A stretch of DNA of 63,491 bases, filler included, from Craspedostauros australis (lineage: Eukaryota), in the NCBI GenBank assembly GCA_030167865.1. It is 11 parts of 11 records of this genome, joined end to end, with 100 filler letters (N's around TTAATTAATTAA, not from the genome) between each part and the next. Parts side by side here need not be neighbours in the genome. Positions count along the whole stretch, not along the records: positions 39,997 to 43,486 come from JALAGF010005574.1; 10 more parts are not named here. One strand, given 5' to 3'. Shown piece by piece: positions 4,265 through 59,942 of the stretch. Under the pieces are notes generated by a model that did not search any database, was not told the origin of the DNA, and was given only the letters and a program-made list of their open reading frames with translations. The position numbers and the translations under genes are program-made. Every line of letters begins with the position of its first letter. The stretch's first letter is position 1.

Positions 4265-6320
4265 TCGAGAGTGTGCTGAATTCGTCGGTGAGGGCTGATG
4301 GTGGTGTGTCACCACGCCGGATCAGGAAATTGTCGGTTGGCGCACCGGCTGGCTCGTGGTTTTGATTCGTGGCGCGGGTGTCGGTCATGTCGTATGTGAC
4401 ACTGGAATTTCGTGTCTGTTGGCGGTTGGGCGAGGCTGGTGTACTCTTGGTGCGCCTGATGGGTCTGGGTGTTCTCCTTTGTGCCGTTTCGAGGGGGTTC
4501 GGTTCTCGTTGGGTTCTGGTTAGCCGAAGGGTTTTCGATGTCGGGCTGTATTTCATGGAGGTCTGTTGATACCTCGCCATGTTCACGCTCATAGTGTGTT
4601 CTTCCTTCGGCGGTGGTGGTTCTTGCGTTTCCGTGGCCATTATATCGGGATCATCGTCTGCTCTGGTCGTCCTGCTCTTTGTTATGGCTTGTGATATGGC
4701 TTCGCTGTGGTATCCGGACTCATGGATTGAGTTCCAGAATATCGTTCTCGACGTGATGTGGTGGAATGGTGTTTTGGAAAGAGGCTTGGTTAGTATGTCG
4801 GCGATGTTGTCAACTGACGCNNNNNNNNNNNNNNNNNNNNNNNNNNNNNNNNNNNNNNNNNNNNNNNNNNTGACGCAATGTGGGCGAACACGATGATTCC
4901 AGCGGCGATGCATTCCCGGATTTGGTGGAAAGCCAATGAGCAGTGTTTCTTCTTTAGCGTTGAGGATGGGACCGTAGTATTGAGTACCACCGCTTTGTTG
5001 TCTCCGAGCATGATTGCGGGTCCGTCGATGGAGACTCCGAGGTCTCTCAGCATGTATCGCAGACCTGTGACCGCCTCGGTAGCTATCCTGGCTGCCACTA
5101 ATTCTGATCCGTATGTGGATGTTTCCACCGTGTTCTGCCATTTGCAGATGGTCTTAACGATGGTGTTGTTGATCAATAGTACCACACCCGTCATGGATTT
5201 CCGTGTGACCTGGTCATGGCCATGGTCGGCGTCCACGTAACACGTGATTTGAACCGGCTTCCCTTTTGGTGTTGGTACTGGTACAGGGGTGACTTCTGCT
5301 TCGGTAGGGTAGAATTCTCTCCAATGGCTTGAGAGGGTAGTGTCGATGTTCGTGTGGTCCACTGGGTTGGGGTCGCAGAGGATGGNNNNNNNNNNNNNNN
5401 NNNNNNNNNNNNNNNNNNNNNNNNNNNNNNNNNNNTGATACGTTGGATGGTCAGGAGATGTCCTTCCCTTGGTGCCATAGCGAACCGTGCCATCGTCGTC
5501 GTGGCGTATTGGATGTCCAACCTTCCGAGGGTCACGACCCAATTGAGGCAACCCAGTATTGATCGGTAGGTCCTGGCGTCTTCAGTGCTTGTGAAGTCCG
5601 AGGTGTCGCTTTCTGGGTGGCAGGCCTCTACCATGGGGGTGGATGCCTTCGGGATTGTCTTCCCTACTAGTTGCTCCACTCGTTTGATGACGTTTCCGAT
5701 ATATGTCTGGGCTGAGAGTCCGATGCTGACTCCCCTGTCCTTCCAGTTCTTGGGAAGGTCGACGATGTTTCCGCCAAGGTAGTACTCTGGGTCACCGCAT
5801 TGCTTCATGGTGTACTGTTTCTTGAGGTCGTCGATGATTGGGATGGGATCCTTGCTGAAGATCAGTACGTCGTCCACGTACGTGGTGATCATCTCGTAGT
5901 GGTCGTCGGCTTCTCTGGTGTAGATGTCGTTGTCGGCTTTGGAGGGTAGGAATCCCATGGTTCGGAGGGTGTCGGCGAAGTGTTCATGGAACCTCGCACT
6001 TGATGTCCTCAGGCCATAGAGTCCCTTTTGGATGATGAGGGGTTTGCCTTCGAGGTCGCCAAATTCAGGTCCTGCTCGGATGTAACACTTCTCGAGGGTG
6101 TCTGCGTATAGAAACGCGTTCCCTACGTCGCCGGCGTATGCTCTCAGCCTGTTGGCTGCTGCGATGGCGAAGGCGATTCGGATGGTGTCTGATGCTACCA
6201 CTCCTGAGTAGACGTCTTCTGTTGGTGGGGATGTCTTGTTCCCGTTTGCCACCAGTCTTGCCTTTCGACGTAGGTCGAACTTCACGTCGTATACGATGTG
6301 GTATGGGATCTTGTTGTCAT
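4265..6320 (-). pseudogene. pol: Ty1/copia (second, CoDi-like lineage) RT-RNase H with a long C-terminal extension, gapped
   Basis: RKARLVANG, DVGNAFLY, KGLYGL, YVDD, YVDADHG, VETSTYGSE and ADILTKPL motifs; the frame continues about 170 aa past RNase H. Confidence 0.9.
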
Positions 6321-15209: not shown

Positions 15210-18200
15210 CTACCATCCCATGAGCTTGGATCGAAGACGCTCGAACGCGTCTCGGGCAAGCCCCTTTGTGAAGATGTCCGCGATCTGAACCGGTGTTGGA
15301 ACGTGGAGAATGCGGATGAAGCCTTCCTTGACCCAGTACCAAAAGAAGTGCCACTTCGTCAAGAAGTGTTTGGTTCTTGATGTCACCTTGTGCTGCGTGG
15401 CCAGTGCGATGCATGCCTCATTGTCCTCAAACACGGTGCATTGGATGTCTGTTTTGAGACGCTCCTCCATTTGCGTGGCGGCTGCCACTTCGCGAATCAG
15501 CTGTTGGATCGGAATGAGAGCTCGCATGGCGAGTGATAGAGCTGCGTACTCAGACTCCATGGTTGATAACGCAATTTCTGTTTGCAGCTTGGATTTCCAA
15601 ACGAGCGGGCAACCTCCCAGCACCACGACGTAACCAGTTCGGGACCGCACTGCATTGGGTGACTCGTGCCTCCCTCTTATATAGCCCAGCGAAGTCGGCA
15701 TCCACATAGCATTGGAGGTCGAGCTTCCCAGTTGGCTGTACGATGGTTCCTTGTGTTCTGGTTTGCTTGAGATAGCGAACGATCATCTTCATGGCCTTTG
15801 CGTGGGGTTGTCGTGGATCGTTGCTGAAGCGAGCAACTTGAGACACCGCATAGGCCAGATCTGGTCGAGTGTTGGTAGTCAGATAAAGCAACATGCCAAC
15901 GATGGACTGGTAGTTCCAGCTCTCTTTCATGGGTGGTGAATCAAGACAAGCTCCCAAGGCGAGTTGTGTTGTTGGTACAACATTCGGATTGCAGCTTTCC
16001 ATTCCAGTTGCCGCGATGATCTTGTCGATGAGCCCTGTTTGTCGCAGATGAATGGTTCTGTCCTTTGGATTCCTCGTGAGCTGGATCCCAAGGAAGTCCG
16101 AGAAGGTACCTTCTTGGGTCAGTTCGAACCCTCGTCGTCGCATGGAAGCAATGACCTGGTCGGTTTCTGCTTGTGTGCGGGAGGCGATTCCGGCATCATC
16201 CACATATAGCACTACCATCATGCCTGGACGAGTGAACAAGCATTTCTCGTGATCACACGCCTTGAAACCTTCCGCTGTGAGTGCTTTGATGAGATGCTCA
16301 TACCACAGCCGAGGTGCAATGGTCAGTCCGTAGAGGCTCTTCTCCAGCTTCAAGCATGTGTTCGGTCCTTTGGACGAGCGAAATTCCCGTGGTGGATGAA
16401 GGAAGACTGGCTTGTGGATTCGAGCTTGGACGAAGGCGTTCGTGAAATCGATGGAGGAGGTCACCCAGCCGAGAAGCACAGAGACCATGAGGAATACTCG
16501 GACGGAAGGCCAAGCTACCACGGGTGCGTAGGTGCTGGCATCCTCGGACATGAGGTCACCTCTACAGCACCATCTCCCTTTGTACTTCTTAACGGATCCG
16601 TCTGGTAGGCGCTTGCGGCGGAAGACCCAGGTGCCTGGATAAATACGGTCGGTGGCTTGTTCTTTTGGTATCTCTACCCAGGTTCCCTTGCTGGTGAGAT
16701 CGTTGATCTCCTTCTGTGCAGCTTCCATCCATCTTCCTTTGTTGTCGTCGCGCATAGCTTCGTCAAATGTGAGGGTGTCTGGATCCGATTTGGATGCTTT
16801 GAAGGCACCAAGGTGTTCAGAGATCGTCCAGTGTCCATTCACAGCAAAGAAAGCCATGATGTCGCTGTCCACATATGTGGATGCAGGAAGAGAAAGACGG
16901 TTGGTGTAAGAAGTGTGTGAAGCAGCTACATTAGCATGATGTTGCTCATCCTCGTCGCTATCATTTTGGTAGTTGTTTCCTTTGTGCTCGCCTGTGGATG
17001 CTTTGTCATTTGCATCCTCCTCGTGTTCGTTGTCATGGAACATACCAAGCTCCCACATAATAGCGTGTAGAGCGTCGGCAGCCTCCTCATGAGTACGAAC
17101 AATGGCTTGGATGCTGGCGAGGCGTTGGTCGATTTGTGCCATGGTGAAGCAAGGTGGTGGCGGCCAGTAGTCGCTCGCCATTGCAGCTTCTGCATTCACC
17201 AATCCATCAGGTCCTCTTGGGTATGCCGACAGGAAGTGTAGGTATTCCATCGGTAACTGAAGACGTTCTCCTGCGATCACATTGTCCATTGTGATCACAA
17301 TCAATTCCAGGGCATGGCAAAGAGTGCGTTGCTGGTACTCTTCGGACGGAAATGGAATCTGGAGCGTCTGTGTGAAGAACTCGTATAGAGCATGTTGGAT
17401 GAGTGTGCGGAAGGCCTCAGTTGGCATAGAAGGGCGATCCTTGTTGTCGTTGCTGTCTTCGTTTTCCAAAATCTGAGCGAAGTGTTGTTGTTCGTTGTTT
17501 TCCGCTTGTTCCGTTTCGTGCTCAACTGCCGCTCGAATTTCCAGCTGTTGCACGCGCAGAAATCGCTCCATTTCCAGATCACCAAGGGCCCATGCTCTGT
17601 CTTGAGCACTGATGGTGTGAGTTGGTTCGTTGAGAGCGGGGATGGAAGCGCGCATATCGCGTAGGGTGTGGAGCGAAGAAGCGACGAACCCATTGAAGCG
17701 AGGGGTGCCACGGTCGCGCTGTTGCTCGAACGTCTCGATGCACGTGCCCAAAGCGTCATCCAGCTGGGATGATGGGTCCGTATTGGCTGGGGCATCGTGA
17801 TCGGTGTGTTGGGTTACGACGGCAGGAAAGGCGTGCTCGGTAACGAGTGCACCGTCGTCTTCGTCCGTCCATGCAACACGTCCTCCCAATTCGTCGTAGT
17901 TGAGACGTTGCGGGGCCTTTCGTTCTCTTTTGCCTTGCGCACGAATACGAGCAGATCGTCGAGTAGGAGCGGCGTCTTGCTTGCGTCTTGGCTGGCGAAG
18001 AGATGATGGAGGTGGCTGTGACGGCGAGGATGTATGAGATGGCGAATGTGGCGGCGATGGCAAGGGTGGCGAACGCTTGGATGGCGTTGGTTGCAGATCG
18101 CTTCCTTCTTGTGGCGTGACGAAGCCATCTTCGACGGTATCGTCGTCAGGATGCATGGCCACATCTTCGTTGTTGGACTGGAGCGATGGATCTCGCGTCG

Positions 18201-20615
18201 GTGGCAATGGCGATGATGGCGGAGGGCTGCGAGCGACTGCTGGTGTTGTGGACGGGCGTGGAGGAGCGGACATGTCTCCCTCTGTCGAGGGCATGCCAGG
18301 CTCCTCTCCCTCTGTCGATGGTAACGGCAACGACATCACCGATGGTGTTGGGTTGCTAGCCACTGGTGGTGGCTGTGACCGTGGCAGCGATGTGTAAGTT
18401 GGTCGCCGTGAGCTTCCTTGCTGTTGACTGATTCTTGTGGTTGTGTGCTCCGTGCTGGATGGAGCACGCTGCATTCGGTGTGAGGAGGGAACATGGTCAC
18501 TGCGGACGTCATTTCGACGCAAGTGATCGTGCTCCTGTTGTTCGGCTTCGGCGCTCTCTTGTTGTTCCAACTCGATGAGGTCGTCCTCATCGAACGGATA
18601 TTGGTATGTGGTGTCACCGAACATCCGTGTCCATTGTTCTGTGTTATAGTCCGGTAATTGGTTGGAGCTGGTTGCAATGGTGGCAAACCAGTCATCGAAC
18701 ACCACATGAAACTGCAGTGTAATGGAGCCGGTTCGTGGAGAGAGAACGAGTGGTACCGTTGATGCGTGTCTGGGTGACAGTCCCATGTTGACGTACCGCT
18801 CTCCTCGCGGCTCCCATCGCGGGATTTTTCGTCCGTCGGCCAGCGCCTTGTTAAGAACATACACAGGACAGCCCCAAACATGCAAGTTGTGCAATTGCTT
18901 GAGAGGAATGCGCAAACGAGAGAGGATGTCAAGTGGAGTGAGACCGGTTGTGTGATTTGGTACACGATTGTACATATATGCGGCGTGCACAACCGCCATT
19001 GGCCACAACTGAGCATCGAACATCTCAGGCCAGTGGATGCTCTGATGCATCATCATGATCCTTGCCATGGAGACAATAGTTCGGATGCTTCGTTCTGCGA
19101 TGCCGTTGTGATGGTGAGCTCCCACTCCCGCAAACCGATGGATCTGGTTGAATTGTTCGAGATGCTTGGTGTATTTGGGTGATGTGAAGGTTGTTGCATT
19201 GTCAGACAGATACGATCTGACAGGCACACCGACATCATGGCACACGACTTCGAACCTCTGCTTTGCCTCCAGTGTTGCATGGGTTGTCAATGATGCGACA
19301 GGTTCCACATGAATGTATCCAGACGCATGGTCAACAAACATCGCACCCCCTTTGTACATTTCGGATGCATCAGCTTTTCCTCGTCCAGAGAAGAGACGAC
19401 CGGGTGTTCGCCCAACGAAGTGATCGACAGAAACCTGTTGACCTGGGAAGAGGTGGTCAGTTTTAAGGACGCCTTGACGATCGCGAATGATGTGTTGGGT
19501 TGTACCTGGTGTAGCACGTCTGTGTTGCTTTCCGAATTGGCAGGCTGCACACATAGGTAGGTGCTGTAGTCTTGCAGCAGCGGTGTGGAGCTTGCGGGTG
19601 GATTCGGAGTTAGACAGAGTACCTGAGCGAAGGAGGAACTGTACTCGTCGAAAGGAGAGATGGGCGAGTCGGTAATGCCAGCGTAGGAGCTCCTTTTGTG
19701 GCTCCGAGAGGTTGGTGTTGTGAGTGGCGACTTGTGTGACGACGGATGTTAGCACTGAGGGTAGGTCTTGGATGTCCTGAAGTCTATATGTGATGGATGT
19801 AGGAAGGTTGCTTGACGGCTTGTGGTGCACTAAGATCGATCCCCTTTTAGGGTCACCTTGGATTCCGCTTAGCTTGCAGGAGTCTTCCATGAGCGTGAAG
19901 GTCTCTCCTGGGTAGGTCTTGAGCAAGCTGGTGGTGCTGAGAAGTCGGGTGGAGGATCCGGGTACGTAGAAGGCTGGAAGGCAGAGCGTGCGAGGTTGTC
20001 CTGTCGTGTCCAGGATGGTCCAGTTGACGGTACCCAAGATGTTGACCTTGGTGCGGTTGAGAAAACCGCTCAAGAACGTCGTACGAGCTGGTGCCTTGGT
20101 CTTGCCCACAAAGTCGCATTTGTCGTTGGTGATGCTAATGGAAGCTCCACTATCCCACACGACCTCAAAAGGAGCGTCATTGGCCAGGGATTGCTCTGCT
20201 TTGGTTGGTGAGGCAAAGACGTTGTGAAGTCCGAAGGTGGTTGTGATTAGTTTGTACGCGTAGTTGAGTTTTCCCGGTATGTGAGACGTGGTCTGATTCG
20301 CTCCTGTGGTTGAGGTAGAATTAATTTTCGGTTCAGACCCGTTGACATTTTCGTCGGCGTATTCGTGGGCTGGAGCAATTAAATCCCATGGATGTTCGTG
20401 ACGATTGGGACGCGAAGGTGGGCGATGCTGGCTCGAGTGATATTTGTGTTTGGTGGCGAACTTTGACTCACATCCATCTCGCTGATTAACACAACCGTAC
20501 ACTTGGTTTCGTGTGAATGATTTTGTGTTTCGCTTGCAACGACGGTTGTTCTTGAGGAATCGCTTGAAGTCACCGTTGCCGAACAGTTGATCGTAGAGAC
20601 TGTCTTTTGGCTTAT
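15210..20615 (-). pseudogene. pol: Ty1/copia pol (PR-IN-RT-RH), 5'-truncated, one frameshift near 15670
   Basis: VVWDSGAS, WHYRLAH..CAAC, VSVDH/SDN/AER, LYVDD, YVDADFAG and ADIFTKGL motifs; the RNase H continues in ORF 15210-15707. Confidence 0.95.
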
Positions 20616-23144: not shown

Positions 23145-23188
23145 NNNNNNNNNNNNNNNNNNNNNNNNNNNNNNNNNNNNNNNNNNNN

Positions 23189-23200
23189 TTAATTAATTAA
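23189..23200. other. Artificial scaffold-join linker TTAATTAATTAA inside an N run (also 31701, 34152, 36194, 39941, 43531, 53556, 55977, 58038, 59887)
   Basis: Identical 12-mer with stops in all six frames, each centred in a spacer of about 100 bp of Ns. Confidence 0.97.
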
Positions 23201-24907
23201 NNNNNNNNNNNNNNNNNNNNNNNNNNNNNNNNNNNNNNNNNNNNCTGCCGAACCATTCCGCCGAGACTCGAACGACCAGTGCTGGCGCAATTCAGTTGCA
23301 TTTTTCGTGTCTGCTTTTGCACGGGAGGCAAAGTCAGGGGCGGACAACTGCTAGCCGCAACAGCTTTTTGGCCGCCGCGATCACATCGGGTGGTCCGCCG
23401 GACCTTTCTTGCATCTGTTGATCTGTGGGGTGGGCGCGTTGAATGTGACAGTTTTGCTCGAGTGTTGCAATCCTTGCCTTCCACACGGAATACAATCAGT
23501 GAGAGGGATAGGCTGAGGATCGTCGCGAGCTGCTGGCTTGAGAATGGATAGTGGAGCAGAGGCGATTATCACCGTACAATAGTGCAGTAATAAGAATACA
23601 ATAGCTGCAAGCAATTTGTGTGCGATAGCGAATACTGTCATCGTCCCTTCGTTCCATGCCTGATTGTCTGCGTCGTGGTTGATCGGCAGAGAGCAGATGA
23701 GCAATGGTTGCGGTGTGTGTTGTGTGTGTGTGTTGTGTTCACCACTTCGGAAAAATCTCTGTATTTGTGGTCACGTGAAGCAAGTACAACTGTCATGCTT
23801 GCATCACACATGTCACAGCGGCCGCTTGTGAACAACGCAACAGCAACCATGGACACTTATCACTTATCAGAAACGACTTTGATTCGCATGCATACATGAT
23901 CCGACATTGTCGTCGCTGCCTCTGTCGTCGTGGTGTGCTTGTTCTGCTACTCACTTTGTGATCGCATTCATGAATGAGCCATGTTGTATCGATGGCGTCG
24001 AGTCTGTCTATTGGCAACAAACGACATTCATCACTAAATGGTGGACATGCAAAGCGCAGCCATCAGACAAGGCACAAGAACACAAACGCGCACGGCGGAG
24101 GGAAGAACAGGCTGCGCAAATCAACATAAACGCACGCACCACAACAAACAACGAAGATCACAACAACGACGATGCTGAAAAGGTGGTCGACATGTCTCCA
24201 CAAATATCTCAGCTGCACATCAGGCAACACATCAGCTGCCACCATCATGGAATCCTCCACTGAGGAAGCAGCACGCGGAGGTGACCGAGTTCAGGATCTT
24301 CTTCTTGTTAGTTTGGAGGCACGGATCCAAGCTTTGAGTATTGCGGAGGCCGCGAGCAGATACCAAACATCACCATGCTGTCGTTGACGTCTGCGCCGAT
24401 TATCCATCATGGAGTTGATTCGGCAATGTTTACGATGAGTCGCTGCTTGCACGCGCAGACAGTACCAGCGCAGTGTCGGAAGCGAGGCAAGAAGAGCGCA
24501 CCTCGCTTGAATGCCAGGGGCGGCGGTACAACACTATCTGTTATACGCGGAAGTGATCTAGATATCGATGAGCATATGGATACAACCGACTGTCTTTGCG
24601 ATGGCAGAGGCGACGTGGTATGCCATGAAGACGCTCGTGATTCGTGCCTGTTCCTGTTCCAGAAGTGCGCAGATGGAGAATGGAGTGTTGTACAGAGATC
24701 TGACGACGACCATGTCGCACAACGAGTTCACGAGTATGGAGCTGCGAGTATAGTGCGAATATAGTATGGTGCGATTATAATATGAATATGATACGAGAAG
24801 GGAGCGACTACGATGCGAGTAGAGCACACCACCAGAGTATATCGGGAGTACGTTTAGAAGCAGAATGCGATAGTCGAATGGTACATTCCTTGTTTCTGGA
24901 CATTATT

Positions 24908-29949: not shown

Positions 29950-31140
29950 TTACTGTCCGTTGCTGCCGCTGCTGTTGCCATTCTTCGGTTGCTATTCTTC
30001 GATTGCCGTTGCTGCTGTCGCCGCTGTCGCCATTCTGCTGTTGCCATTCTTCGGTTGCCGCTGCGGTTGCCGCTGCTGTCGCCATTCTTCGGTTGCTATT
30101 CTTCGATTGCCGTTGCTGCTGTCGCCGCTGTTGCTGCTGTTGCTGCTGCCACCATTCTGCTGTTGCCATTCTTCAGTTGCTGCTGTGATTGCCACTGCTG
30201 TCACCATTCTTTGGTTGCTATTCTTCGGTTGCCGTTGCTGCTGTTGCTGCTGCCGCCATTCTGCTGTTGCCATTCTTCGGTTGCCGCTGCTGTCGCCATT
30301 CTGCTGTCGCCAGTCTTTGGTTGCTATTCTTTGGTTGCCATTGCTGCTGTTGCTGCTGCCGCCATTCTGCTGTTGCCATTCTTCGGTTGCGGCTGCGGTT
30401 GCCGGTGCAGTTGCCGCTGCTGTCGCCATTCTTCGGTTGCCATCGCCGCTGCCACCATTCTTCGGTTGCCGCTATCGCCATTCTGCTGTTGCCATTCTTC
30501 GGTTGCTGTTGCTGCTGCCGCCATTCTGCTGTTGCCATTCTTCGGTTGCCACTGCTGTCGCCAGTCTTTGGTTGCTATTCTTCGGTTGCCGTTGCTGCTG
30601 TTGCTGCTGCCGCCATTGTGCTGTTGCCATTCTTCGGTTGCCACTGCTGTCGCCAGTCTTTGGTTGCTATTCTTCGGTTGCCGTTGCTGCTGTTGCTGCT
30701 GCCGCCAGTGTGCTGTTGCCATTCTTCGGTTGCCGCTGCTGTCGCCATTCCGCTGTCGCCAGTCTTTGGTTGCTATTCTTTGGTGGCCGTTGCTGCTGTT
30801 GCTGCTGCTGCCATTCTGCTGCCACCATTCTTCGGTTGCCGCTGTGGTTGCCGTTGCTGCTGTTGCCGCTGTTGCCATTCTGCTGTTGCCATTCTTTGGT
30901 TGCCGCTGCTGTCGCCATTCTGCTGTTGCCAGTCTTCGATTGCCGCTGTGGTTGCTGCTGCTGTCGCCATTCTCCGGTTGCCATTGCCGCTGTCACCATT
31001 TTGTTGTTGCCATTCTTTGGTTGCTGTTGCTGCTGTTGCCATTCTTCGGTTGCCGTTGCTGCTGTCGCCATTCTTCGGTTGCCGTTGCTGCTGTGGCCAT
31101 TCTGCTGCTGCCATTCTGCTGTTGCCATCCCTGTCACCGC
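29950..31140. repeat. Mosaic low-complexity repeat built from 14-mers (GCCATTCTTCGGTT, GCCATTCTGCTGTT, GCCAGTCTTTGGTT) and GCY triplet modules
   Basis: Direct reading; gives open frames on both strands. Confidence 0.9.
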
Positions 31141-31757
31141 TGCTCTTGTCGCTGCCGTTGAGGCCACGGTTGTTATTGTGACCACTCCATCTGACGAAGC
31201 GGCGAATTGTGTGCGGATGGCACTGCCCCTCCTTGTCTGCGGGTCGAAAGCCGCTGGCGCTGTGTTTTGTCGAGACAGACGGATTATTTTGGAAAATGTG
31301 GGACTGGGTTCGGTCGTCCAAAATGAGAATCTTGGATCCGTCATTTGGCGAATGTGTGATTGATCGTGACTCTAAGTAGAAAATAATGGAGAGCTCGGAA
31401 GAACATGGAAAATTGAGATATGGGACCAAAATACGACTGACCAAGATCATGTGATGGAGTCTGGAGATCACATGATGAGATTCAGAGCCCATGTGATGGA
31501 GTCTGATGACTATGTTATGTGACCTATCAACCATGTGTGAGAAACGAGCAACCATGCATGAGAAACAAGCAGATCACCAAGAGGCAAGACATCCAATCGT
31601 GCAGAAATATGAAGGCATGCCACTACACGGTGAACTGAGTAGAAATTGAAGAATGANNNNNNNNNNNNNNNNNNNNNNNNNNNNNNNNNNNNNNNNNNNN
31701 TTAATTAATTAANNNNNNNNNNNNNNNNNNNNNNNNNNNNNNNNNNNNNNNNNNNNG

Positions 31758-34107: not shown

Positions 34108-34207
34108 NNNNNNNNNNNNNNNNNNNNNNNNNNNNNNNNNNNNNNNNNNNNTTAATTAATTAANNNNNNNNNNNNNNNNNNNNNNNNNNNNNNNNNNNNN
34201 NNNNNNN

Positions 34208-36149: not shown

Positions 36150-36249
36150 NNNNNNNNNNNNNNNNNNNNNNNNNNNNNNNNNNNNNNNNNNNNTTAATTA
36201 ATTAANNNNNNNNNNNNNNNNNNNNNNNNNNNNNNNNNNNNNNNNNNNN

Positions 36250-39896: not shown

Positions 39897-39996
39897 NNNN
39901 NNNNNNNNNNNNNNNNNNNNNNNNNNNNNNNNNNNNNNNNTTAATTAATTAANNNNNNNNNNNNNNNNNNNNNNNNNNNNNNNNNNNNNNNNNNNN

Positions 39997-42900
39997 GTCC
40001 AGCGCATTGGAAATGTATTTGTCGCATCCGACGCTCCATTTTCCTTTTGCGTTCCTGGAATAATCGTTGCCGAGATAGTATTTCGGCGGTCCGATGTCTT
40101 TGACTGTGTAGACTTGTTGGATCGCCTTCATGTACTGATCTGGGTCTTTGGCGACTATCTTGAAGTCGTCGACGTGGGTGCAGATGTAATCGTAGCCAGA
40201 GTCGTCTCTGCGCTGGATCCATACATCTTGATCATGCCGGGATGGCGTGAATCCCATTGATGAGAGAGTGTTAGCGAAGTGTGCATGGAATCGTTGAGCG
40301 CTCGACCGAAGACCGTACAGTGCTTTCTTGAGCACGATGACTTGTCCTTCTTTGTCGCCGAATGCCTTTCCTGCTGTCGCGTAGATCTTCTCATTGGTGT
40401 ACGCATTGACGAATGCGTTGCCGACGTCGCCGCATAGCTGTTGCAGGTTGTTTGCATCTGCTATTGCATCAAGGATGCGGACGCTTGTCGATTTGACGGT
40501 TGAAGAGTAGACTCGGATGTTGTCCGCCAGCTCGATGAGATGCCCGCCTGCTACCAAGCGCCCCTTACGTCGCAGANNNNNNNNNNNNNNNNNNNNNNNN
40601 NNNNNNNNNNNNNNNNNNNNNNNNNNCGCCAGCTCGATGAGATGCCCGCCTGCTACCAAGCGCCCCTTACGTCGCAGATCTTGCTTGACCGCGAATATGA
40701 GTCGGAGTTTTGTGCTCTGGTAGTCTGCTGGTGGTTGGTATGTCGATGGGTGGAATGTGAAACAGTCGAGTTCGATCAATGCGTCGATCTCTTTCTTCGC
40801 TGCATCTCTCCATTGGTGATCCCCATTGGCTTCATCCAGTTGCAATGCATGTTTCATGTTGCGTGGGACCTCGACACCGTATTGGTATACAGTGGCGAAG
40901 TAGTCTCGTTTCGGCTTCTTCTTGCCTGGACGGATTCGTCTGATGATGATGATGTTGTCGTCGTCATCCATTGCGAATGCTCGAGTCCGCTCGATTCTGC
41001 GGATTCTGCGCCTGATGGCTCGCAGTGCATGCTTTGCCCACTTGAGTAGGACTTGTGATTGTCGATTGTGTCGACCGTTGCGTCGTGGTTCGTTGTCGAT
41101 GATGTATCGTGCTACCATTTCGGGATGGTCTGCTCGAATCACGTCGTATCGGAACCACTGCGTTTCAGCGTTGGACCATTGCACATTGAAGTGTAGATGT
41201 CCGTCTCTGAATGCGTGGCTGAGGATGGAGTTGATTGCCAAGTCGTCAGATTTCTCGTTTTCGACCTGATTTCGGAACAGCTCGTCATGCTCTCTCTCNA
41301 TGAGAGAGGACTCACGCCCCTGAGAGCGGTGCTCCGGAGGATCTGGCATCGCCGTGACGTCGGAGTCATCGGTCTCCTCAGAGATGTTACCCGTGGATGC
41401 GTCGCCGTCGTCATCTGAGATGACGCCGTGTGCATTATGTTCCGGCATGTCGCCGTCGTTGGGAATTATGTTGGGCTGACCGAACCATCGGTCTGCCGTG
41501 CCTGCTGGCGTGTTGTTCTCGGATACGCCCCTGACCTCCTGCGTCTCCGGCTCCGGTGGACCCGCCATCGCCCCTGACTGCACAGCAATCGCGTCGATGG
41601 CCTCGCGGACCTGTCGAGCGAGTTCCGCCGGCAATGTCTTGGTTCTGGCGCGTTCGCCGGATTCGCCGCGCGTAGTGGTGTGGATGATATCGAGTCGAGC
41701 GATGCGGTTGATTTCCGCATCCGTGATGCGTGGAGGAATGGCGTCTTCGACGACACGCGGCTTGACGATGTTGCGCACAAGCGCGGTGCCCTTCGTGACG
41801 TCATCGCCTCGTGGAGACCATATGGTGTAGGTAAATGGATCGCCGTGATTCCATGCGATGCCAAGGAAGTACCCTGGCTTGAATGGATGGTTGGGGAATT
41901 TGGTCATGGGCTCGAAGAACCATACGGGTTGGAAGAACGTGAAGCGAAACATCGAGATGTCGGGAGTGTTGCCGCGAAGAATCTCGATCGGTGTACGCCA
42001 TTGGAGGCTTGCTTTCGCCGTGTAGTTCCATGTGTCGATCGCGTGTTGCACAGCGTAGCACCAGAAAGAGAGTGGCGCCGAGGCCGCCCATAGAAGCTGG
42101 TATGCATGCCGCTTGACATTGCCGATCGCCCGTTCTGCGTGGTTCTGGTTCTGATTCATGGGCACAGTGAACTGGTGCTTGATCAGATAGCGGGATGTGA
42201 CCGCTTTCCATGCCTTGCCCGATTGCACCTGCGAATTGTCTGAAACGAGTAGATCCGGAGCGCCGACGCGGATGATGAAATCCGTGAGCGCCCCTGGCGC
42301 CATGGCCTCACGGCTCAGTGGCTTCGCCCAGATGAATTTCGATTGGTTGTGCGAGAATAGCTGGAAACACTTGTAGTGCCTGATGGACTGGACGGTAGAG
42401 AAGAACGTGTCCGTGTCAACTCTGCCGTCGATTCTGGTGGGTTGCAGCACTCCTGCTCGCTGCGCTCGATACTGCCGCGGGATAAGCCTTGACTCTGCCT
42501 CGATCGGAGTATCCGCCAGCTGAGTGGATGCCGCCATGGTTTTCTCCACCACGTGTGGTGGAAGGTGCCGGAAGATTCGCGTGAAATCGACCCGACCTGT
42601 GTTGCGTCGTAGACGCTGATGTCTGTCGCATATGATGATATGCCGTGCCGTCGCCATCTCGTGGGCTGTTGGCTTTCTGATGGGAATGCGGAGCGTGTTG
42701 CCTTCATGGTTCTCCAGTGGTATGCTGATTTCGTCCGATGAGACCCGCTGCTGTCCCTGATGTTCAATTAGGCGATCGTAGACGTTCAGTCCGGACGCGC
42801 GCATATGATGTGTGTTAAACAGTGATTCCGTCTGCTGTGGATGCTTGTCGAGAGCCACGTANNNNNNNNNNNNNNNNNNNNNNNNNNNNNNNNNNNNNNN

Positions 42901-43260
42901 NNNNNNNNNNNNNGCGTCGACCATCTGGAATGTCTCGATTGGTGAGTTGATCGTCGCCCCTCGGGCACGAAACTCTTGTTGGTGTGTGTGGGTCACCTCC
43001 CATCCCGACGCATGAACGATGTCTCCGTCCGCCCCTGAGTCTAGGATGATAAAGCCTTGGCTATTGGTCGTTACTCTCGCCCTTCGGATGCAATGCTCCA
43101 CTGTCGGGTGGGTTGTACACGGACGGGACTCTTGTGGTGCCACCGGACGTGCACGTCCGGGCATTCCCGCTGCGGTCGTCACGCTCGCCCCCCTACAGTC
43201 GCGGGGTTTGAGGTGGATGACAATCTCCGACTGACGGCGAGTTGTGCCCGTCTTTGATTG
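39997..43260 (-). CDS. pol: Ty1/copia pol (PR, IN, chromodomain-like, RT N-terminal part), truncated by the scaffold end
   Basis: IILDSGADG, DTFFS/VSDNS/QNHAER, RKGRLVAGGH, DVGNAFV, KALYGL and HVDD motifs. Confidence 0.92.
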
Positions 43261-43486
43261 TCAAGAACCGGCGTTCCATGGTCCTTGGGTGCCGGGTCGT
43301 CCGGTCTTGTGATCGCCCGTGCGAGGCCGCTTGGGCCCTCGCTGGGTCAGTGGCAACTCGAGGTTGCGCGCGTAGTCTGCTGGCTTGTTGCGCTTGAGGG
43401 TATCCTCATCAATGGGTTTCCCGGTGGTGCGGAAGTGACGAGACGCTTCGACGAGGAGCACTTGAGTGCTCACCGGCATGCGACGG
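43261..43486 (-). CDS. gag: Probable gag C-terminus ending in TGA, in frame with pol
   Basis: Open from the scaffold edge to TGA at 43263-43261; 26 sense codons then lead into ORF 39949-43182. Confidence 0.6.
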
Positions 43487-43585
43487 NNNNNNNNNNNNNN
43501 NNNNNNNNNNNNNNNNNNNNNNNNNNNNNNTTAATTAATTAANNNNNNNNNNNNNNNNNNNNNNNNNNNNNNNNNNNNNNNNNNN

Positions 43586-46500
43586 NGAGCCACCAGGACA
43601 ACTTCAAGTTCAAGGCGAAGGCAAAGGGCAAGAACGTTCCCAAACAGGACAACCTCTCCATTGACATGGCCGCTTGGACATGCTTCACAGCCACCTCCAG
43701 TCAAGACGAAGACACCTGGTGGTCCCTCATTTGGAACCTCTTCACCTCTTTCAACTACTCCGGTAGCATCATCGGATTGGTTCTCCTCTTCGCTTCACTC
43801 CAAGTCATCACCATCGGAGTAGAGTATGGGTGGTACATCGCGGCAGCTAATGCCTGGATGCTAATCGCCGTAACTCTACTCCTCCTCCACACGAACGTTC
43901 CACGAAGACCCGACTTAATCAACTCTANTGATTTAGCCTATAACAAGGCACGAGTCAAGGAACGGTTCAAGCAAGTGCACAAACGTCCCACACACTTCAA
44001 TGGAGCTGTGAAACGCAGTCTCTACGACCTTGTGATGGAAAGTCTCGACCCAGATGAACCCAAACCCGTAAACGTGTCGAAAGGAAAATCCCCACGAACA
44101 AAACGTGTGTGGCGCCCCCAGGCCCGGACTAAAACTCGCAATCACAGATCAAAACGTCGTTACTGGAACCAGTCGAAAACTTCCACTTATGGTAAAAACC
44201 AGCCATTCACGACTGCAAAATTGCCCCGCCAGGAAGGTCGCACCTCATCCATCTCACGAAACCTTTGGAGCCTATACCCAACTCGTGNNNNNNNNNNNNN
44301 NNNNNNNNNNNNNNNNNNNNNNNNNNNNNNNNNNNNNTGACAATGACATGCCCGCACTACTCACTCTGCAAGGTCTAGCATCTTACTTCACCAATCGCAA
44401 CGCTTTCGCATCTCCAGCTAAGGCTGAGAGTTATCTCTCGCCCGATGCTCCATTCGAACTTGTATGGGACAGCGGAGCGTCAATCTCTGTGACAAATGAC
44501 ATCAACGATTTCTGTTCTACTCCAAGTCCTCCACCAAGACCGACCTTTCTCAACGGGTTCCTCAAGAAAATCCAAGTGAATGCGTTGGGGACCGTCGAAT
44601 GGCATGTCCTTGATGTAACTGGAAGCCCTCGCAAATTGCGACTGCCTGCTTTCCATGTTCCCGAATCAAAGGTCAAGCTAATCAGCACTTCCAGTCTCCT
44701 CGAAGAGTATCAGGGCGAAACAATAGTGTTCGACAAGTCCTCCTGCAAACTCAGCGGAATCCTGGGAAGCGACGATCGCAATGCAATTGTAGCAAACTAC
44801 AAGAAATCCACAAGGTTGCCAACATCCGTCGGCTACAGCGTCGACAACATTCATGATGTGCCAGCTGCACTAACGTCCATCGTCTCTACCGTATCGGATC
44901 ACAACGTGAACCTCACCCAACCGCAAAAGGAACTTCTTCGGTGGCACTATCGTCTCGGACACTTATCCTTCAGTCGAGTGAAGTTCCTGCTGCGTTCGGG
45001 TGCACTCACTGGGTCAGAATCGTCTAGAAAGATGCACACAGCTGCGGCAAAGGTCACGAGCCTTCCGCTTTGCGCCGCATGTCAATTCGGAAAGCTGCAC
45101 CGTCGCCCTTCACCAGGCATAACCCAACATGTCATTCGTGACAGACAAGGAGTTTTGCGCACCGACCACTTGTTCCCAGGACAACAAGTATCAGTGGACC
45201 ACTTCGTCGGTCGAACACCAGGACGCCTCTTCTCAGGACGAGGCAAAGGTGATCCAAACGAAATGTACAAAGGCGGAGCCATCTTCGTCGATCACGCCTC
45301 CGGATACATTCATGTGGAACCAGTAGCAGCGCTAACCACACACGCTACCCTCGAGGCCAAGGAACGGTTCGAACTAATGTGTCGAGATGTGGGAGTCCCC
45401 GTGCGATCTTACCTATCAGACAACGCAACTACCTTCACCTCACCCGAATACTCCAAGCACCTTGAGATATTCCATCAAGTCCATCGATTCGCAGGCGTCG
45501 GCGCTNNNNNNNNNNNNNNNNNNNNNNNNNNNNNNNNNNNNNNNNNNNNNNNNNNNNNNNNNNNNNNNNNNNNNNNNNNNNNNNNNNNNNNNNNNNNNNN
45601 NNNNNNNNNNNNNNNNNNNNNNNNNNNNNNNNNNNNNNNNNNNNNNNNNNNNNNNNNNNNNNNNNNNNNNNNNNNNNNNNNNNNNNNNNNNNNNNNNNNN
45701 NNNNNNNNNNNNNNNNNNNNNNNNNNNNNNNNNNNNNNNNNNNNNNNNNNNNNNNNNNNNNNNNNNNNNNNNNNNNNNNNNNNNNNNNNNNNNNNNNNNN
45801 NNNNNNNNNNNNNNNNNNNNCCTTAACAAAGCACTGGCCGACGGGCGCAAGATACCCCGATGGGAACCAAGAGGAGAGAGATACGTGAACATGGGTCTCT
45901 CCACTAAGCATGCTTCAACCGTACCCCTGGTCCTATCACCACGGACAGGTTCAATCACACCACAGTTCCATGTTGTGTTCGACGACTGGTTCGCAACAAT
46001 TGCTACCGACTTGAAGCAACTTCCAAGCTATCAATCGGAAGAATGGACTNNNNNNNNNNNNNNNNNNNNNNNNNNNNNNNNNNNNNNNNNNNNNNNNNNN
46101 NNNNNNNNNNNNNNNNNNNNNNNNNNNNNNNNNNNNNNNNNNNNNNNNNNNNNNNNNNNNNNNNNNNNNNNNNNNNNNNNNNNNNNNNNNNNNNNNNNNN
46201 NNNNNNNNNNNNNNNNNNNNNNNNNNNNNCCACAGGTATTGGCGAAAGAGTCGCAACCAACGACACAACAGATCCCGGATCTCATGAGTGAAACTCTCGC
46301 CCCTCCGATGCCAGCTTCAGAGGGAGCCAACAAGCAAATGTCGTCGACAGAGGGAGCTCCCGATGAGTTCCCGGTACCTGATCCTACTATAGAGTCACCG
46401 GACCAGCGAACACTTCAACCGCAATTTGACTCACCTCTCCGAGAGTCACCAATCTCGGGACCGGCAACTCCATTACCACCTTCAGATCCGACACCAACTG

Positions 46501-49331
46501 AGACCAGTTCCACGACACCAATCATGCCCAAGCTTGAACCAACGCCAGTAAGACTTCGAAGCACGAGAAATCGCAAACAACCAAAGCGATTCACGTATGC
46601 ACGCATGGGAGGCAAAGCCGCATGGTTAGACGACGAAGGTACCGATGACTACTACTTCTGTCCCGCGGTGGCTAACATGGAAGAAAATGAACAGGAAGCA
46701 ACAACCAGGGAACTACACCCTGATTCTGCATCAATCATCACATTCTCACAAGCTGTCGTCGATTGCCTACATACAATCGAACCTCTCCAACGCAAAGGCA
46801 GCGACTCCCTCTCCATCGACCTACACCAATTCAAGGTGGACGCTCACTACTTGTTGCGCAGACTTCGAGGTCGATTCAATACGTTGAATCCACAACCAAC
46901 CAACATCGTCCTTCCAACGTTCACCCCAAAGCCGGCTAAAGAAGAAGCAAGCATCAACATGGCCGATTGGTGGCAGCCGGATCCAGACGACATGGTCGAA
47001 GAAGGACCAACGCCATTCCAGGACGTCTACGAGGACTTCTACTCGGACATGGAGAGACATTTCGAAGTCGATCTTCACTGCGAGATTCGTTGTGACGACC
47101 TCAGGAGACAAGCGACTGACTACGCCGTCGGCCAATTCGTCAACAGACTGAGCACTTTCATTCGAACCGGCATCATGAACCCCAGCTTCGATGCCTTTGA
47201 CTACATGTCATCGGCCAAACCAGAGCCATGGTCGTATCAGGATCCGGAATANTTGATGATGAAGGGTTTTCTTCCTCCCGAATCCAGAATCAGTGGAAAC
47301 ACATTCTTCAAAAGAACTCGCTCCGTGTGGAACGCCATCTCTGAGAACCATCGCTATCGTCTCGCATTCGAACTACTCCGTCGCCAAGTCACGACGATTC
47401 GTCCAGGGCCATGGCCACAGCCAAGTGAATTCGAAGTTGAGAAATTTATCCAAGGAATGATCGATACCAACACGGCACCTCTTAAGGTGGCCCCAGCAAC
47501 GCGAGCGTCCGATCAAAGCGGATCAACACTTGAAGTCGACCCATCATCCATCCTCGACACAGCAACATGTATCCCAGAGCACACATGGGCGAACATCGAA
47601 CAACATGCTTACGCTGTCTCCATCATCGAGCCACAACGAGACTCAACGAACTTCCCAACATATGTTGATGGACACATGATGAGCTACTTCGCAACAGGTG
47701 GCGATTTGGACATCGCCGAACGCTCATCCACGTACAAAGCATCCAGCAATGACCCTGATACCCTTTCTTTTGACGAAGCGATTCGCGACGACAACAAGGA
47801 TGAGTGGATGCAAGCAGCCGGAAAAGAAATCAAGGCACTTACCGAGAAGGGAACATGGGAAGAGATTCAAAAGGCCGACGTCGTCAACGATCGAATCTTC
47901 CCAGGGACCTGGGTCTTCCGTCGCAAGCGCTTGCCAGATGGTACTATCAAGAAGTACAAGGGTCGCTGGTGTTGCCGCGGAGACCTCATGAATGAGGATG
48001 CATCCACCTACGCGCCAGTCGTGGCCTGGTCATCCGTTCGCATCTTCCTGAGCACATCCATCGTGATGGGTTGGACAACTACATCCATCGACTTCACAAA
48101 TGCCTTCGTGCAGGCCTCCATCCACAAGCCTGTGCATCTTCACCTTCCTCGCGGCTTCAAGTCAAGCAAGGGGCCCAACACCTGTCTCCGACTTCGCAAA
48201 AGTCTCTACGGATTGACGATCGCTCCGCGCCTGTGGTACGAGCACCTCATCCGAGCTCTAATCACAGTCGGCTTCACAGCTTGCGATCAAGAGCAATGCT
48301 TGTTCATCAAGCGCAACATCATGATTGTTCTCTACGTTGACGATGCAGGAATCGCCTCCAAGACTAAGAAGGATGCTGATGACTTCATTGCATCAATGCG
48401 TGAACTCGGGTTCGAGCTTACCCAGGAAGGCAGCTTCACCGAATTCCTGGGGATTGAGCTCTGCCGTGACCCGAAGGCGGATACTGTCCATCTTCGACAA
48501 CCAGGATTGATCAAAAAGGTCCTTGAGACAACGAAGATGTCGAACTGCAATCCATGTCCGGTACCTACCACCCAACTCGCACTCGGACAGTGCAAGGATG
48601 AACCAGCCATGAACGAGAAATGGAACTACCGCTCTGTCGTCGGCATGCTGCTCTACCTCACAACAAACACTCGTCCCGATCTCGCCTTCGCAGTCTCCCA
48701 AGTCGCTCGCTTCGGACACAATCCCCGCCGCTCACACGCCAAAGCTGTCAAGCGCATCATGCGCTATCTCAAGCACACCGAAACCATGGGCACCATTGTT
48801 CGCCCTACAGGGCAACTCGACCTCAAGTGCTACGTGGACGCTGACTTCGCAGGCCTCTACCAACGTGAGGACAGCAAAGACCCGGTGTCGGTCAAGTCGC
48901 GCACGGGATATCTAATCACATTGGGTGGATGCCCTCTCATTTGGAAGTCGAAGCTCCAAACTGAGATCGCGTTATCCACAATGGAGTCCGAGTACGCCGC
49001 TCTCTCCCTGGCAATGCGAACATTGATTCCCATCCAACAACTCATTCGCCAAGTGATCAACAACGCCGGCACCGACATGCCGCTGCACACCAACCTCCAG
49101 TGCACTGTCTTCGAGGACAACCAAGCCTGCATTTCCCTCGCCACCAATCATCAGCCGACCGCGCGCACCAAACACTTCCTAACCAAGTGGCATTTCTTTT
49201 GGTACTGGGTCAAGGCAGGATTCATTTGCATTCAACACATCTCCACGCCGGAACAGCTCGCAGACATCTTCACGAAGGGACTGTCCATCGTGGTCTTCGA
49301 ATACTTACGGTTCAAAATCATGGGCTGGTAA
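43586..49331 (+). CDS. pol: Ty1/copia gag end, hydrophobic spacer and pol (PR-IN-RT-RH), gapped
   Basis: LVWDSGAS, WHYRLGH..CAAC, VSVDH, SDN, LYVDD, YVDADFAG and ADIFTKGL motifs; frames across the gaps are uncertain. Confidence 0.93.
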
Positions 49332-49411
49332 CAACCAACAAACAACAATGAAGGATGAAGTTTTCATCGATACCACAACTCCAATCACGACCCAACACTG
49401 AGAGGGAGAGT

Positions 49412-53000: not shown

Positions 53001-53611
53001 GGATGGGGTGCTCAGATACGATGGATATGATGAGGAAGGGCATGATTGTCGACCGTGAAGTGGGGGTGGGTGAGTGTCGCCCAGAGTTTTTTTATGTGAC
53101 AACACGCAATATCACGGGCCGAAATGGTATTGAAACTAAAGTTATCTATTTTTAAGTTCAATATTCACTATCACTGACAGTCAGGTATTCACATGGTATG
53201 CTCAGTTTATGGTTTAACTGAGTTGGTGTATAGATATAGCATCATAAGGGGTTGCTGAGGCTGGTTTGGAGTTTGAGTCGTGATTAGCCTTGATTTGTCC
53301 GCAAAGCACGACAGAATCCCAAAGTGGGGCCCACAGCTAGCATTTGCATGGTGAAATTACCAGTTTACAGAGGGTACAGAGGGTTTTTCAATGATGTGAG
53401 GAGACCAAGCTGAGTTGGAAGTGGCCGAGTGAAGTCAGTCCATCCTAGATCAAGAGTGGTGAGAGCTGTGAGTTGACCAATCTCGGATGGAAGCTGCCCA
53501 GTGAAGTCAGTNNNNNNNNNNNNNNNNNNNNNNNNNNNNNNNNNNNNNNNNNNNNTTAATTAATTAANNNNNNNNNNNNNNNNNNNNNNNNNNNNNNNNN
53601 NNNNNNNNNNN

Positions 53612-55932: not shown

Positions 55933-56032
55933 NNNNNNNNNNNNNNNNNNNNNNNNNNNNNNNNNNNNNNNNNNNNTTAATTAATTAANNNNNNNNNNNN
56001 NNNNNNNNNNNNNNNNNNNNNNNNNNNNNNNN

Positions 56033-56724: not shown

Positions 56725-58093
56725 ACAAGTTGCAACTCAAGCACAATTGTACGCAGTTGAGATGTGGGTCATGCATGGGACGTTTCTGTGATTGGTCACT
56801 TTTCGGAAAACAGTATTTGCAAACCCTGATCCAAGCAACTCGATCCTGCTCGTGTGTGTGTGCGTGATTCAAAACACCCATGACTGTACTTTTATAGAAT
56901 CTCTATATATGTACTATCCTAATTTGATCAACTCAAATTAGCAACCACCATCACCNNNNNNNNNNNNNNNNNNNNNNNNNNNNNNNNNNNNNNNNNNNNN
57001 NNNNNNNNNNNNNNNNNNNNNNNNNNNNNNNNNNNNNNNNNNNNNNNNNNNNNNNNNNNNNNNNNCTTTGTGAGGATGGCGTGGCGAAGAGCCAGGACGA
57101 GAGTATCATTCACTCTTGACCACCATCTGTGCATTTTGAACAGGCCCCCCTTCCACCCCCCACACATACACCCACTCCCTCCTTCCTTCCCCATCCCTCT
57201 ACGGGGACTGGACATTGGTGGAGAGTATAGTAGAGTGGAATCGTTCATCATTCTCCACACTCCAGCCATGGCCTTGCTATCTGCTCCGTCTGTCTATCTT
57301 TTCTCGAGGCATGTCGAAGACTCTGTCGAGTGATTGCGTTTCAGCTGTGCAGACGTTCGAGTGTTGGCGTGTGTTCCTCTCACATGAGACATAGCGCAGC
57401 AGCACAGACGCACACATGATAGCTGCTACATGCCTATGTATTAGTACATCTAATCGATGAGTATTGCTGCTTTCGTTCCCATCACCATGATGATCATTTC
57501 CAGCACGGATATCGTGAGGCTGAAGATTGCTCACAATTGCGTTTTCGAGAAGGACAAGTTGACTTGGTTTGGCGAGGACAGAGAAAGAATGAACAGACAT
57601 CTGGGAGGATGATGATGGGAGTGACTTGTTTCTGGCTCCAGATTTTGGCAACGCATCAACAACCAACTCCTCTCCTCGCATGTGTGTGTGCGCACCATTC
57701 CAACACCCATCTCTCTTCGCCTATTGGCTTTGATCTTGTGTAGTAACTGTTCTAATATCTTTTAACGAAGTATTGTCGGGCATCGCCCGACACTTGTTAA
57801 AACTACTTTTTGACACAGGGAGAGGATCCCTTGTGCTTGCACAACATTCTCCAAGGATGATCCTGGCATTTCACACACCGCCTTGACTGTCCACCACCCC
57901 CCATCCAACCTCCCCCCACACACACAATACCCACATCCCCCAATACTACTTGTATCATATACTAGTATATGAGCTGCGAGTATCAGGATCTCCNNNNNNN
58001 NNNNNNNNNNNNNNNNNNNNNNNNNNNNNNNNNNNNNTTAATTAATTAANNNNNNNNNNNNNNNNNNNNNNNNNNNNNNNNNNNNNNNNNNNN

Positions 58094-59842: not shown

Positions 59843-59942
59843 NNNNNNNNNNNNNNNNNNNNNNNNNNNNNNNNNNNNNNNNNNNNTTAATTAATTAANN
59901 NNNNNNNNNNNNNNNNNNNNNNNNNNNNNNNNNNNNNNNNNN

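Follow-up and report, generated by a model that had tools for sequence, protein, structure and literature searches.

How a retroelement sets its ratio of Gag to Pol is a classic question in the study of recoding. To our knowledge, elements of the copia type for the most part do without recoding, Tca2 being the known exception with an in-frame stop, by a mechanism that is still debated; the CAR-YYA signal we know from the replicases of plant RNA viruses and not from LTR retrotransposons. A 2003 survey of gag/pol recoding by Gao et al. reportedly found single ORFs to be dominant in the Ty1/copia group.

Tca2, a Ty1/copia element of Candida albicans, is described in the available text of PMC2194720 as having a gag-UGA-pol arrangement in which the stop is followed by 8 nt of purine-rich spacer and then by a possible pseudoknot with a bulged stem, and its flanking sequence is given there as insufficient for readthrough in yeast. 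In murine leukaemia virus (MuLV) the stop is UAG, an H-type pseudoknot begins after a spacer of 8 nt, and readthrough of about 5% sets Gag:Pol (available text of PMC2194720 and PMC5009743). According to the same portion of PMC2194720, CAR-YYA is sufficient by itself for a leaky stop in tobamoviruses, and Drosophila copia sets its ratio by splicing. The CoDi elements, Ty1/copia elements of diatoms (Maumus et al. 2009), carry an ORF1 upstream of a polyprotein ORF2 (PMC2806351, available text). Within the available text of the literature searched, we found no CARYYA-type stop in an LTR retrotransposon and no recoding in diatom elements; the element described below may itself be contained in Additional file 1 of PMC2806351.

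This element, a CoDi-like member of the Ty1/copia group, carries one in-frame TGA between the presumptive end of gag and the protease. At a rough probability of 0.5, we read the TGA of this one copy as a genuine, leaky gag terminator of the readthrough type. Most ribosomes would stop there and yield Gag only, while a small fraction would decode the UGA with a near-cognate tRNA and run on into protease, integrase and reverse transcriptase, so that the fraction reading through would set the Gag:Pol ratio. The main signal would be the leaky UGA-C tetranucleotide together with the CAA-UCA hexanucleotide, and a short hairpin or H-type pseudoknot 8 nt downstream may contribute. A serious contender, which we nevertheless hold at less than even odds, is that the family encodes gag and pol in a single ORF and that in this copy alone a codon was turned into a stop, by mutation or by a mistake in base calling or assembly. 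The copy would then be dead or crippled, the CAA-UCA context happenstance, and the downstream pairings coincidental.

The TGA, its frame and its context

The window, that is, the whole stretch of 63,491 nt of DNA that was analysed, is a chain of 11 unplaced contigs joined by ten 100-nt artificial spacers, each consisting of 44 N, TTAATTAATTAA and 44 N. Mapping of N runs placed the spacers at 23145-23244, 31657-31756, 34108-34207, 36150-36249, 39897-39996, 43487-43586, 53512-53611, 55933-56032, 57994-58093 and 59843-59942. Because the window is made of joined unplaced contigs, features on either side of a spacer are not genomic neighbours. The element lies on the minus strand of the contig at 39997..43486, as delimited by the N runs and TTAATTAATTAA linkers and read by translation, and it is truncated at both its 5' and 3' ends. 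Both ends are contig ends, and any LTRs would fall outside 39997-43486. Upstream, the element is cut off by the spacer at 43487..43586 (44 N, TTAATTAATTAA, 44 N), beyond which an unrelated contig begins.

With the stop written as X, the read-through product comprises 1163 residues, with 74 open codons before the stop and at least 1088 after it. Translation places the protease active-site motif DSGAD at residue 149, 74 codons past the stop (43027..43041, minus strand). On the same strand, alignment shows an integrase region conserved with relatives at residues ~300-585 (41731..42588), and Pfam locates the reverse transcriptase (RVT_2) at 40009..40575, the contig ending inside this domain and RNase H being missing. 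The only Pfam match to the read-through protein is this RVT_2 domain (PF07727, residues 971-1159, E 3.1e-16, with a score of 60.2 bits where the cut-off is 31.6). The order PR-IN-RT makes the element Ty1/copia-type. Between integrase and reverse transcriptase, at residues ~745-800 (41100-41250, minus strand), lies a conserved block of ~50 residues with the pattern H..W.dg.L.f.V.W....t.W........D.P...A.YI, which is common to all close relatives; it is chromodomain-like by eye, and Pfam gives no call there.

On the minus strand the junction reads GGT TCT TGA CAA TCA AAG ACG GGC, exactly as a sequence-only reading of this DNA had reported, with the TGA at 43261..43263 (residue 75 of the read-through product) and CAA TCA at 43255..43260. 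We likewise agree with that reading that the six bases past the stop, CAATCA, match the leaky-stop context CARYYA, and that the TGA shares its frame with the listed ORF at 39949..43182, 26 sense codons separating it from the listed GTG start. The broader claim, that this is a copia gag-pol junction, held in part: the pol is of copia type and the TGA lies in its frame, but an upstream gag ORF ending at the TGA was not confirmed. The 74 open codons before the stop continue the pol frame (43264..43485, minus strand), match the 'W-R...N.G' block of relatives weakly, and probably correspond to the tail of gag plus a basic linker. Pfam detected no gag domain in these 74 residues, and a tblastn search of the window with the gag regions of ten relatives detected no gag of the element's family (best E 0.074, for a match downstream of the stop). 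Only 74 codons of the contig lie before the TGA, with no recognisable gag among them. The stop is real in this assembly; a gag-pol junction, with gag upstream in the same frame, is what we infer from it.

Past the stop, the peptide block TRR...EIVIHLK (43207..43242, minus strand; TRR at residues 82-84) aligns with the block RR..D-T-V-E-I/V-K-L of relatives, and its conservation indicates that the pol frame is coding from 7 codons downstream of the stop. A frameshift site at the junction was considered and rejected, as the conserved blocks on the two sides of the stop share one frame. An alternative genetic code was rejected too, there being no other TGA, TAA or TAG in 1127 codons.

The quality of the contig bears directly on whether the stop might be an isolated lesion. 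It contains two internal gaps (40577-40626 and 42862-42913) and a lone N at 41299. Each side of the 50-N gap at 40577-40626 codes for the same 17 residues (LRRKGRLVAGGHLIELA; 40525-40680, minus strand); this stretch is single in the closest relative, and so the duplication is probably an unmerged overlap that reflects weak assembly of the contig. Because the contig is unplaced, gapped and duplicated at one gap, the stop may stem from a wrong base or from collapse during assembly, and the position of the TGA only 223 nt from the end of such a fragment also favours a stray change. Such a change would be easily made at this site, which is rich in arginine and lysine, since one C-to-T transition in an arginine codon gives TGA; over the whole frame, 370 of the 10143 possible single-base changes create a stop. 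On the other side, the TGA at 43263-43261 is the sole stop in the 1127 readable codons of the contig. The copy has a CpG observed/expected ratio of 1.19 and retains 28 intact CGA codons, and hence bears no sign of methylation-driven decay.

The leaky context is rare in this sequence. Although the contig is rich in C and A, only 6 of its 1122 in-frame hexamers match, and in the whole window the context follows 15 of the 3787 stop triplets, a chance rate of about 0.4-0.5%. One of the matches, TAA CAA CCA at 49329-49337 on the plus strand, is the ordinary pol stop of another element, with no coding frame after it. It serves as a reminder of the chance rate, and the occurrence of CARYYA by chance past that stop speaks for a fortuitous context at the TGA as well. 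The same holds for the way in which the junction came to notice: it was picked for its context, which inflates the apparent rarity.

Several other features were noted in the window. An open frame of 1199 residues fills the whole contig at 36251-39847 (minus strand) and encodes an AMP-binding enzyme and not a transposon (PF00501, E 1.6e-55, with DIP2-like and C-terminal AMP domains). At least four copia-type elements of other families are represented at 15553-20502 (minus), 46230-49328 (plus), 744-2780 (minus), 5194-6285 (minus) and 44108-45505 (plus), with RVT_2 matches at E 5e-24 to 5e-38 and gag_pre-integrs domains; the reverse transcriptase at 5686-6273 is the one nearest in the window to that of our element, at 46% identity. 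Finally, TAGCAACCA occurs five times at steps of ~100 nt over 30220-30775 (minus strand), presumably within a tandem repeat.

Predicted RNA structure after the stop

A structure downstream of the stop had been proposed along with the context, and its individual pairings are all present. The TGA is followed by the 8-nt spacer CAATCAAA, after which GACGG (43252-43248) can pair with CCGTC (43237-43233) to give a first stem, S1, and ACAACTC (43245-43239) can pair with GAG(A)TTGT (43227-43220; GAGATTGT) to give a second, S2, with one bulged A. By enumeration of pairings, this amounts to a candidate H-type pseudoknot at 43220..43252 (minus strand), starting 8 nt past the stop and having loops of 2, 1 and 5 nt. 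The S1 hairpin alone has a predicted energy of -6.0 kcal/mol. A further pairing, of TGACAATC (43263-43256) with GATTGTCA (43225-43218), was also found, and its helix appears in the minimum free energy (MFE) fold. We reject this 8-bp helix as a downstream stimulator because it includes the stop codon, and the stop and the next bases sit inside the ribosome while the stop is being decoded.

The nested fold as a whole is no better than those of dinucleotide shuffles, with z of -0.46 for 72 nt and -0.41 for 171 nt. The 63-nt stretch that would extend beyond a ribosome paused on the stop likewise gave no better value than shuffles (z 0.05).

How unusual the pseudoknot appears depends on the space searched. 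The searches used a simple enumerator with crude stacking energies. In a narrow search space modelled on the observed structure, 1 of 1035 in-frame positions and 4 of 3106 positions of the contig, 673 of 113056 positions of the window and 9 of 3000 shuffles gave a pseudoknot at least as good (0.1-0.6%). In a broader and more neutral space, which allowed spacers of 4-10 nt, stems of 4-10 bp, a single bulge at any position and wider loops, 29 of the 1008 in-frame positions did so, as did 14853 of the 213327 shuffles (3-7%). The pseudoknot is therefore sterically reasonable yet only marginally unusual, and the 3-7% of the broad search, together with nested folds that do not exceed shuffles, fits coincidental pairing around a lone lesion. 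Moreover, its arms share sequence with the codons for the conserved block TRR...EIVIHLK, and coding may account for some of the complementarity as a side effect.

Relatives and the linker between gag and protease

Whether the stop is shared by sibling copies bears on every reading of it. In the window, blastn with the junction and tblastn with the whole read-through protein returned no second junction, only distant copia elements with 46% and ~25% identity in the reverse transcriptase. The one relative to come out of a protein word search, P0002 (52% identity), starts at the protease and does not cover the junction; a search for shorter proteins returned none. Searches of viral contigs and of prokaryote genome contigs yielded no relative of the element. 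Across the window and the collections searched, the family is thus known here from one copy, and that the stop is common to the family is what we infer from the single junction.

More distant relatives are plentiful. An exhaustive HMMER search gave 17051 matches at E up to 0.001, and protease motifs were counted in 151 proteins, namely the 150 matches listed, of those 17051, plus P0002. The motif pattern occurs in 17 of the 151; one occurrence, in P0022, is spurious, as integrase aligns there at residue 11, leaving 16 that are credible. At least 225 residues precede the protease in 12 of these 16, as in a fused gag, which weakens the case for readthrough; of the remaining four, three start with Met 20-118 residues before the protease and one is cut at the protease. 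The N-terminal part of these relatives is a copia gag, P0153 matching Retrotran_gag_2 with 29 bits against a cut-off of 27.

A scan of metagenomes gave 22 loci, eight of which extend upstream of the protease. Four of them, L001-L004, have uninterrupted gag-pol frames, of 1161+ (running off the contig), 1814, 1820 and 1918 codons respectively. L008 is free of stops in the ~267 codons before the protease and L005 in 82 codons; L010 is decayed, and L007, described below, has a single in-frame TGA. In a local alignment of the linker, the stop of the window element falls within a lysine/arginine-rich block flanked by a gag-tail motif, IP.IP..L....W.....N.G, which the window element matches weakly, and by RR..DTVE(I/V)KL before the protease. 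All ten aligned fused gag-PR relatives (L001, L002, L003, L008, P0004, P0154, P0167, P0172, P0019 and P0048) have sense residues through this block; L004 and L005 were left out of the alignment, their proteases having been missed by the motif pattern. Together with the uninterrupted ORFs of L001-L004, this tally of 10 of 10 supports the TGA being an accident of one copy. The relatives that have sense codons at the position of the stop are, however, at 57% identity or less, a distance at which their sense codons would be compatible either with a family-specific stop or with its absence, and so neither prove nor exclude one.

Two related families are themselves interrupted between gag and protease. 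L007 (133-5798) is a complete copia-type element with a gag of ~494 codons, one in-frame TGA (1615-1617) and a pol of 1393 codons running to a TAG. All three database records that extend to the end of its gag ORF (P0173, P0174 and P0176) stop at one and the same residue, and as these differ from one another by 1-2 residues, the stop of L007 is a stable feature of its family. Two members of the L007 cluster are filed under a Bacteroidota MAG at NCBI, which suggests that a contig of eukaryotic origin was misbinned. The L007 stop lies 27 codons before the protease Asp, at a place that is not homologous to the stop in the window, and its context is TGA GGA GCA, not CARYYA. The narrow search detected no pseudoknot there, and the best one from the broad search was matched at 36 of 1985 in-frame positions.

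The second family is that of P0003, the best overall HMMER match among those listed (43% identity). Its cluster at 90% identity (including P0153, P0154, P0159 and P0163) contains split proteins, four with gag alone (434 aa) and two with pol alone (1297 aa), and in addition two fused forms, one of 1731 aa and a partial one of 1535 aa; 434 and 1297 add up to 1731. For at least 398 residues the gag-only form matches the fused form at 97% identity, and it then diverges inside the basic block, the pattern expected from a change of frame. This family may thus possess a programmed frameshift or slippage site, or it may possibly consist of two co-existing variants.

Counting the window element, L007 and the P0003 family, all three interruptions in otherwise intact members of the clade sit in the gag-PR linker, which at 131 codons makes up about a tenth of the coding length. 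This coincidence of place counts against a random lesion in the window copy. It also raises the idea that in the stramenopile (CoDi-like) copia clade this linker is a hot spot for switching from a single ORF to two ORFs by recoding. The window family would have made the switch by UGA CAA UCA with a spacer and pseudoknot like those of Tca2 and MuLV, L007 by another UGA, and P0003 by a change of frame. We put this forward tentatively, since the proposal with its three cases taken jointly is, in our estimation, rather unlikely.

Weighing the readings against known systems

Readthrough at the TGA is a plausible mechanism, and somewhat better supported than chance. In its favour, the stop is the only one in the copy, it falls at a sensible boundary and it has a rare leaky context; its spacing and pairings recall Tca2 and MuLV, and related families are interrupted at the same boundary. 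The support is weakened by the absence of the stop from all ten fused relatives, by folds that do not rise above shuffles and by a pseudoknot whose rarity depends on the search, as well as by L007, the stop of which stands elsewhere in the linker and lacks CARYYA. That the evidence comes from a single copy, on a low-grade unplaced contig with gag outside it, weakens it further.

These same weaknesses are what make a lone nonsense change or sequence error a real possibility, although that account has to accept a coincidence of ~0.5% for CARYYA, times ~10% for a position in the 131-codon linker, times 0.1-7% for the pseudoknot. A third account, that the TGA is the true end of gag and that Pol is produced by ribosomes that reinitiate 32 codons further on at an in-frame ATG (Met at residue 107, before the protease), or from an internal promoter, by splicing or by some other bypass, we consider improbable: the conserved stop of L007 without CARYYA would suit it, as would the Tca2 junction, which alone gave no UGA readthrough in yeast and for which a minor internal promoter was found (available text of PMC2194720), but the sequence here indicates no splice site or promoter, and the block TRR...EIVIHLK lies between the stop and Met 107 and hence would be lost on reinitiation.

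If the TGA is indeed a leaky terminator, an in-frame UGA would be known from a copia lineage other than and unrelated to that of Tca2, in this case in a textbook leaky context, and the element would offer a cleaner model. With the two related interrupted families, it would show how easily single-ORF elements switch their strategy of expression. Should the linker prove to be a hot spot of this kind, the window family would be the first LTR retrotransposon seen to carry a readthrough signal of the plant-virus type, and recoding would be described for the first time in this algal group. If instead the stop is an isolated lesion, the finding is an ordinary one, and a warning against reading stops in chains of unplaced contigs as biology.

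Set beside the described systems, the element belongs to the same superfamily as Drosophila copia and the single-ORF copia elements, and most of the relatives that we found have a single ORF, whereas here a stop lies inside the frame. With the CoDi elements it shares the order PR-IN-RT, its closest relatives coming from aquatic metagenomes; the available text of PMC2806351 proposes no mechanism of expression for them. The likeness to tobamoviruses lies in the CAA UCA past the stop, which fits their CAR-YYA consensus. Moloney murine leukaemia virus resembles it in that a stop in frame is followed by 8 nt of spacer and then by an H-type pseudoknot, the last being a candidate here, as far as the available text on the virus goes. 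The virus differs in being a retrovirus with another order of pol domains, in using UAG, and in having a longer, experimentally proven pseudoknot, as against candidate stems of 5 bp and of 7 bp with a bulge. The closest parallel in layout is to Tca2. Its host is a fungus, whereas our element comes from a probable stramenopile alga, a diatom or another member of that group, as its CoDi-like architecture and its relatives in aquatic metagenomes suggest. In the available text of PMC2194720, the Tca2 stop is present in many copies and expression of pol was shown, as against one truncated copy known from sequence alone here, and the CARYYA context is not described for it there. Both are nevertheless copia-type elements in which an in-frame UGA precedes pol and is followed by an 8-nt spacer and a possible pseudoknot (PMC2194720, available text).
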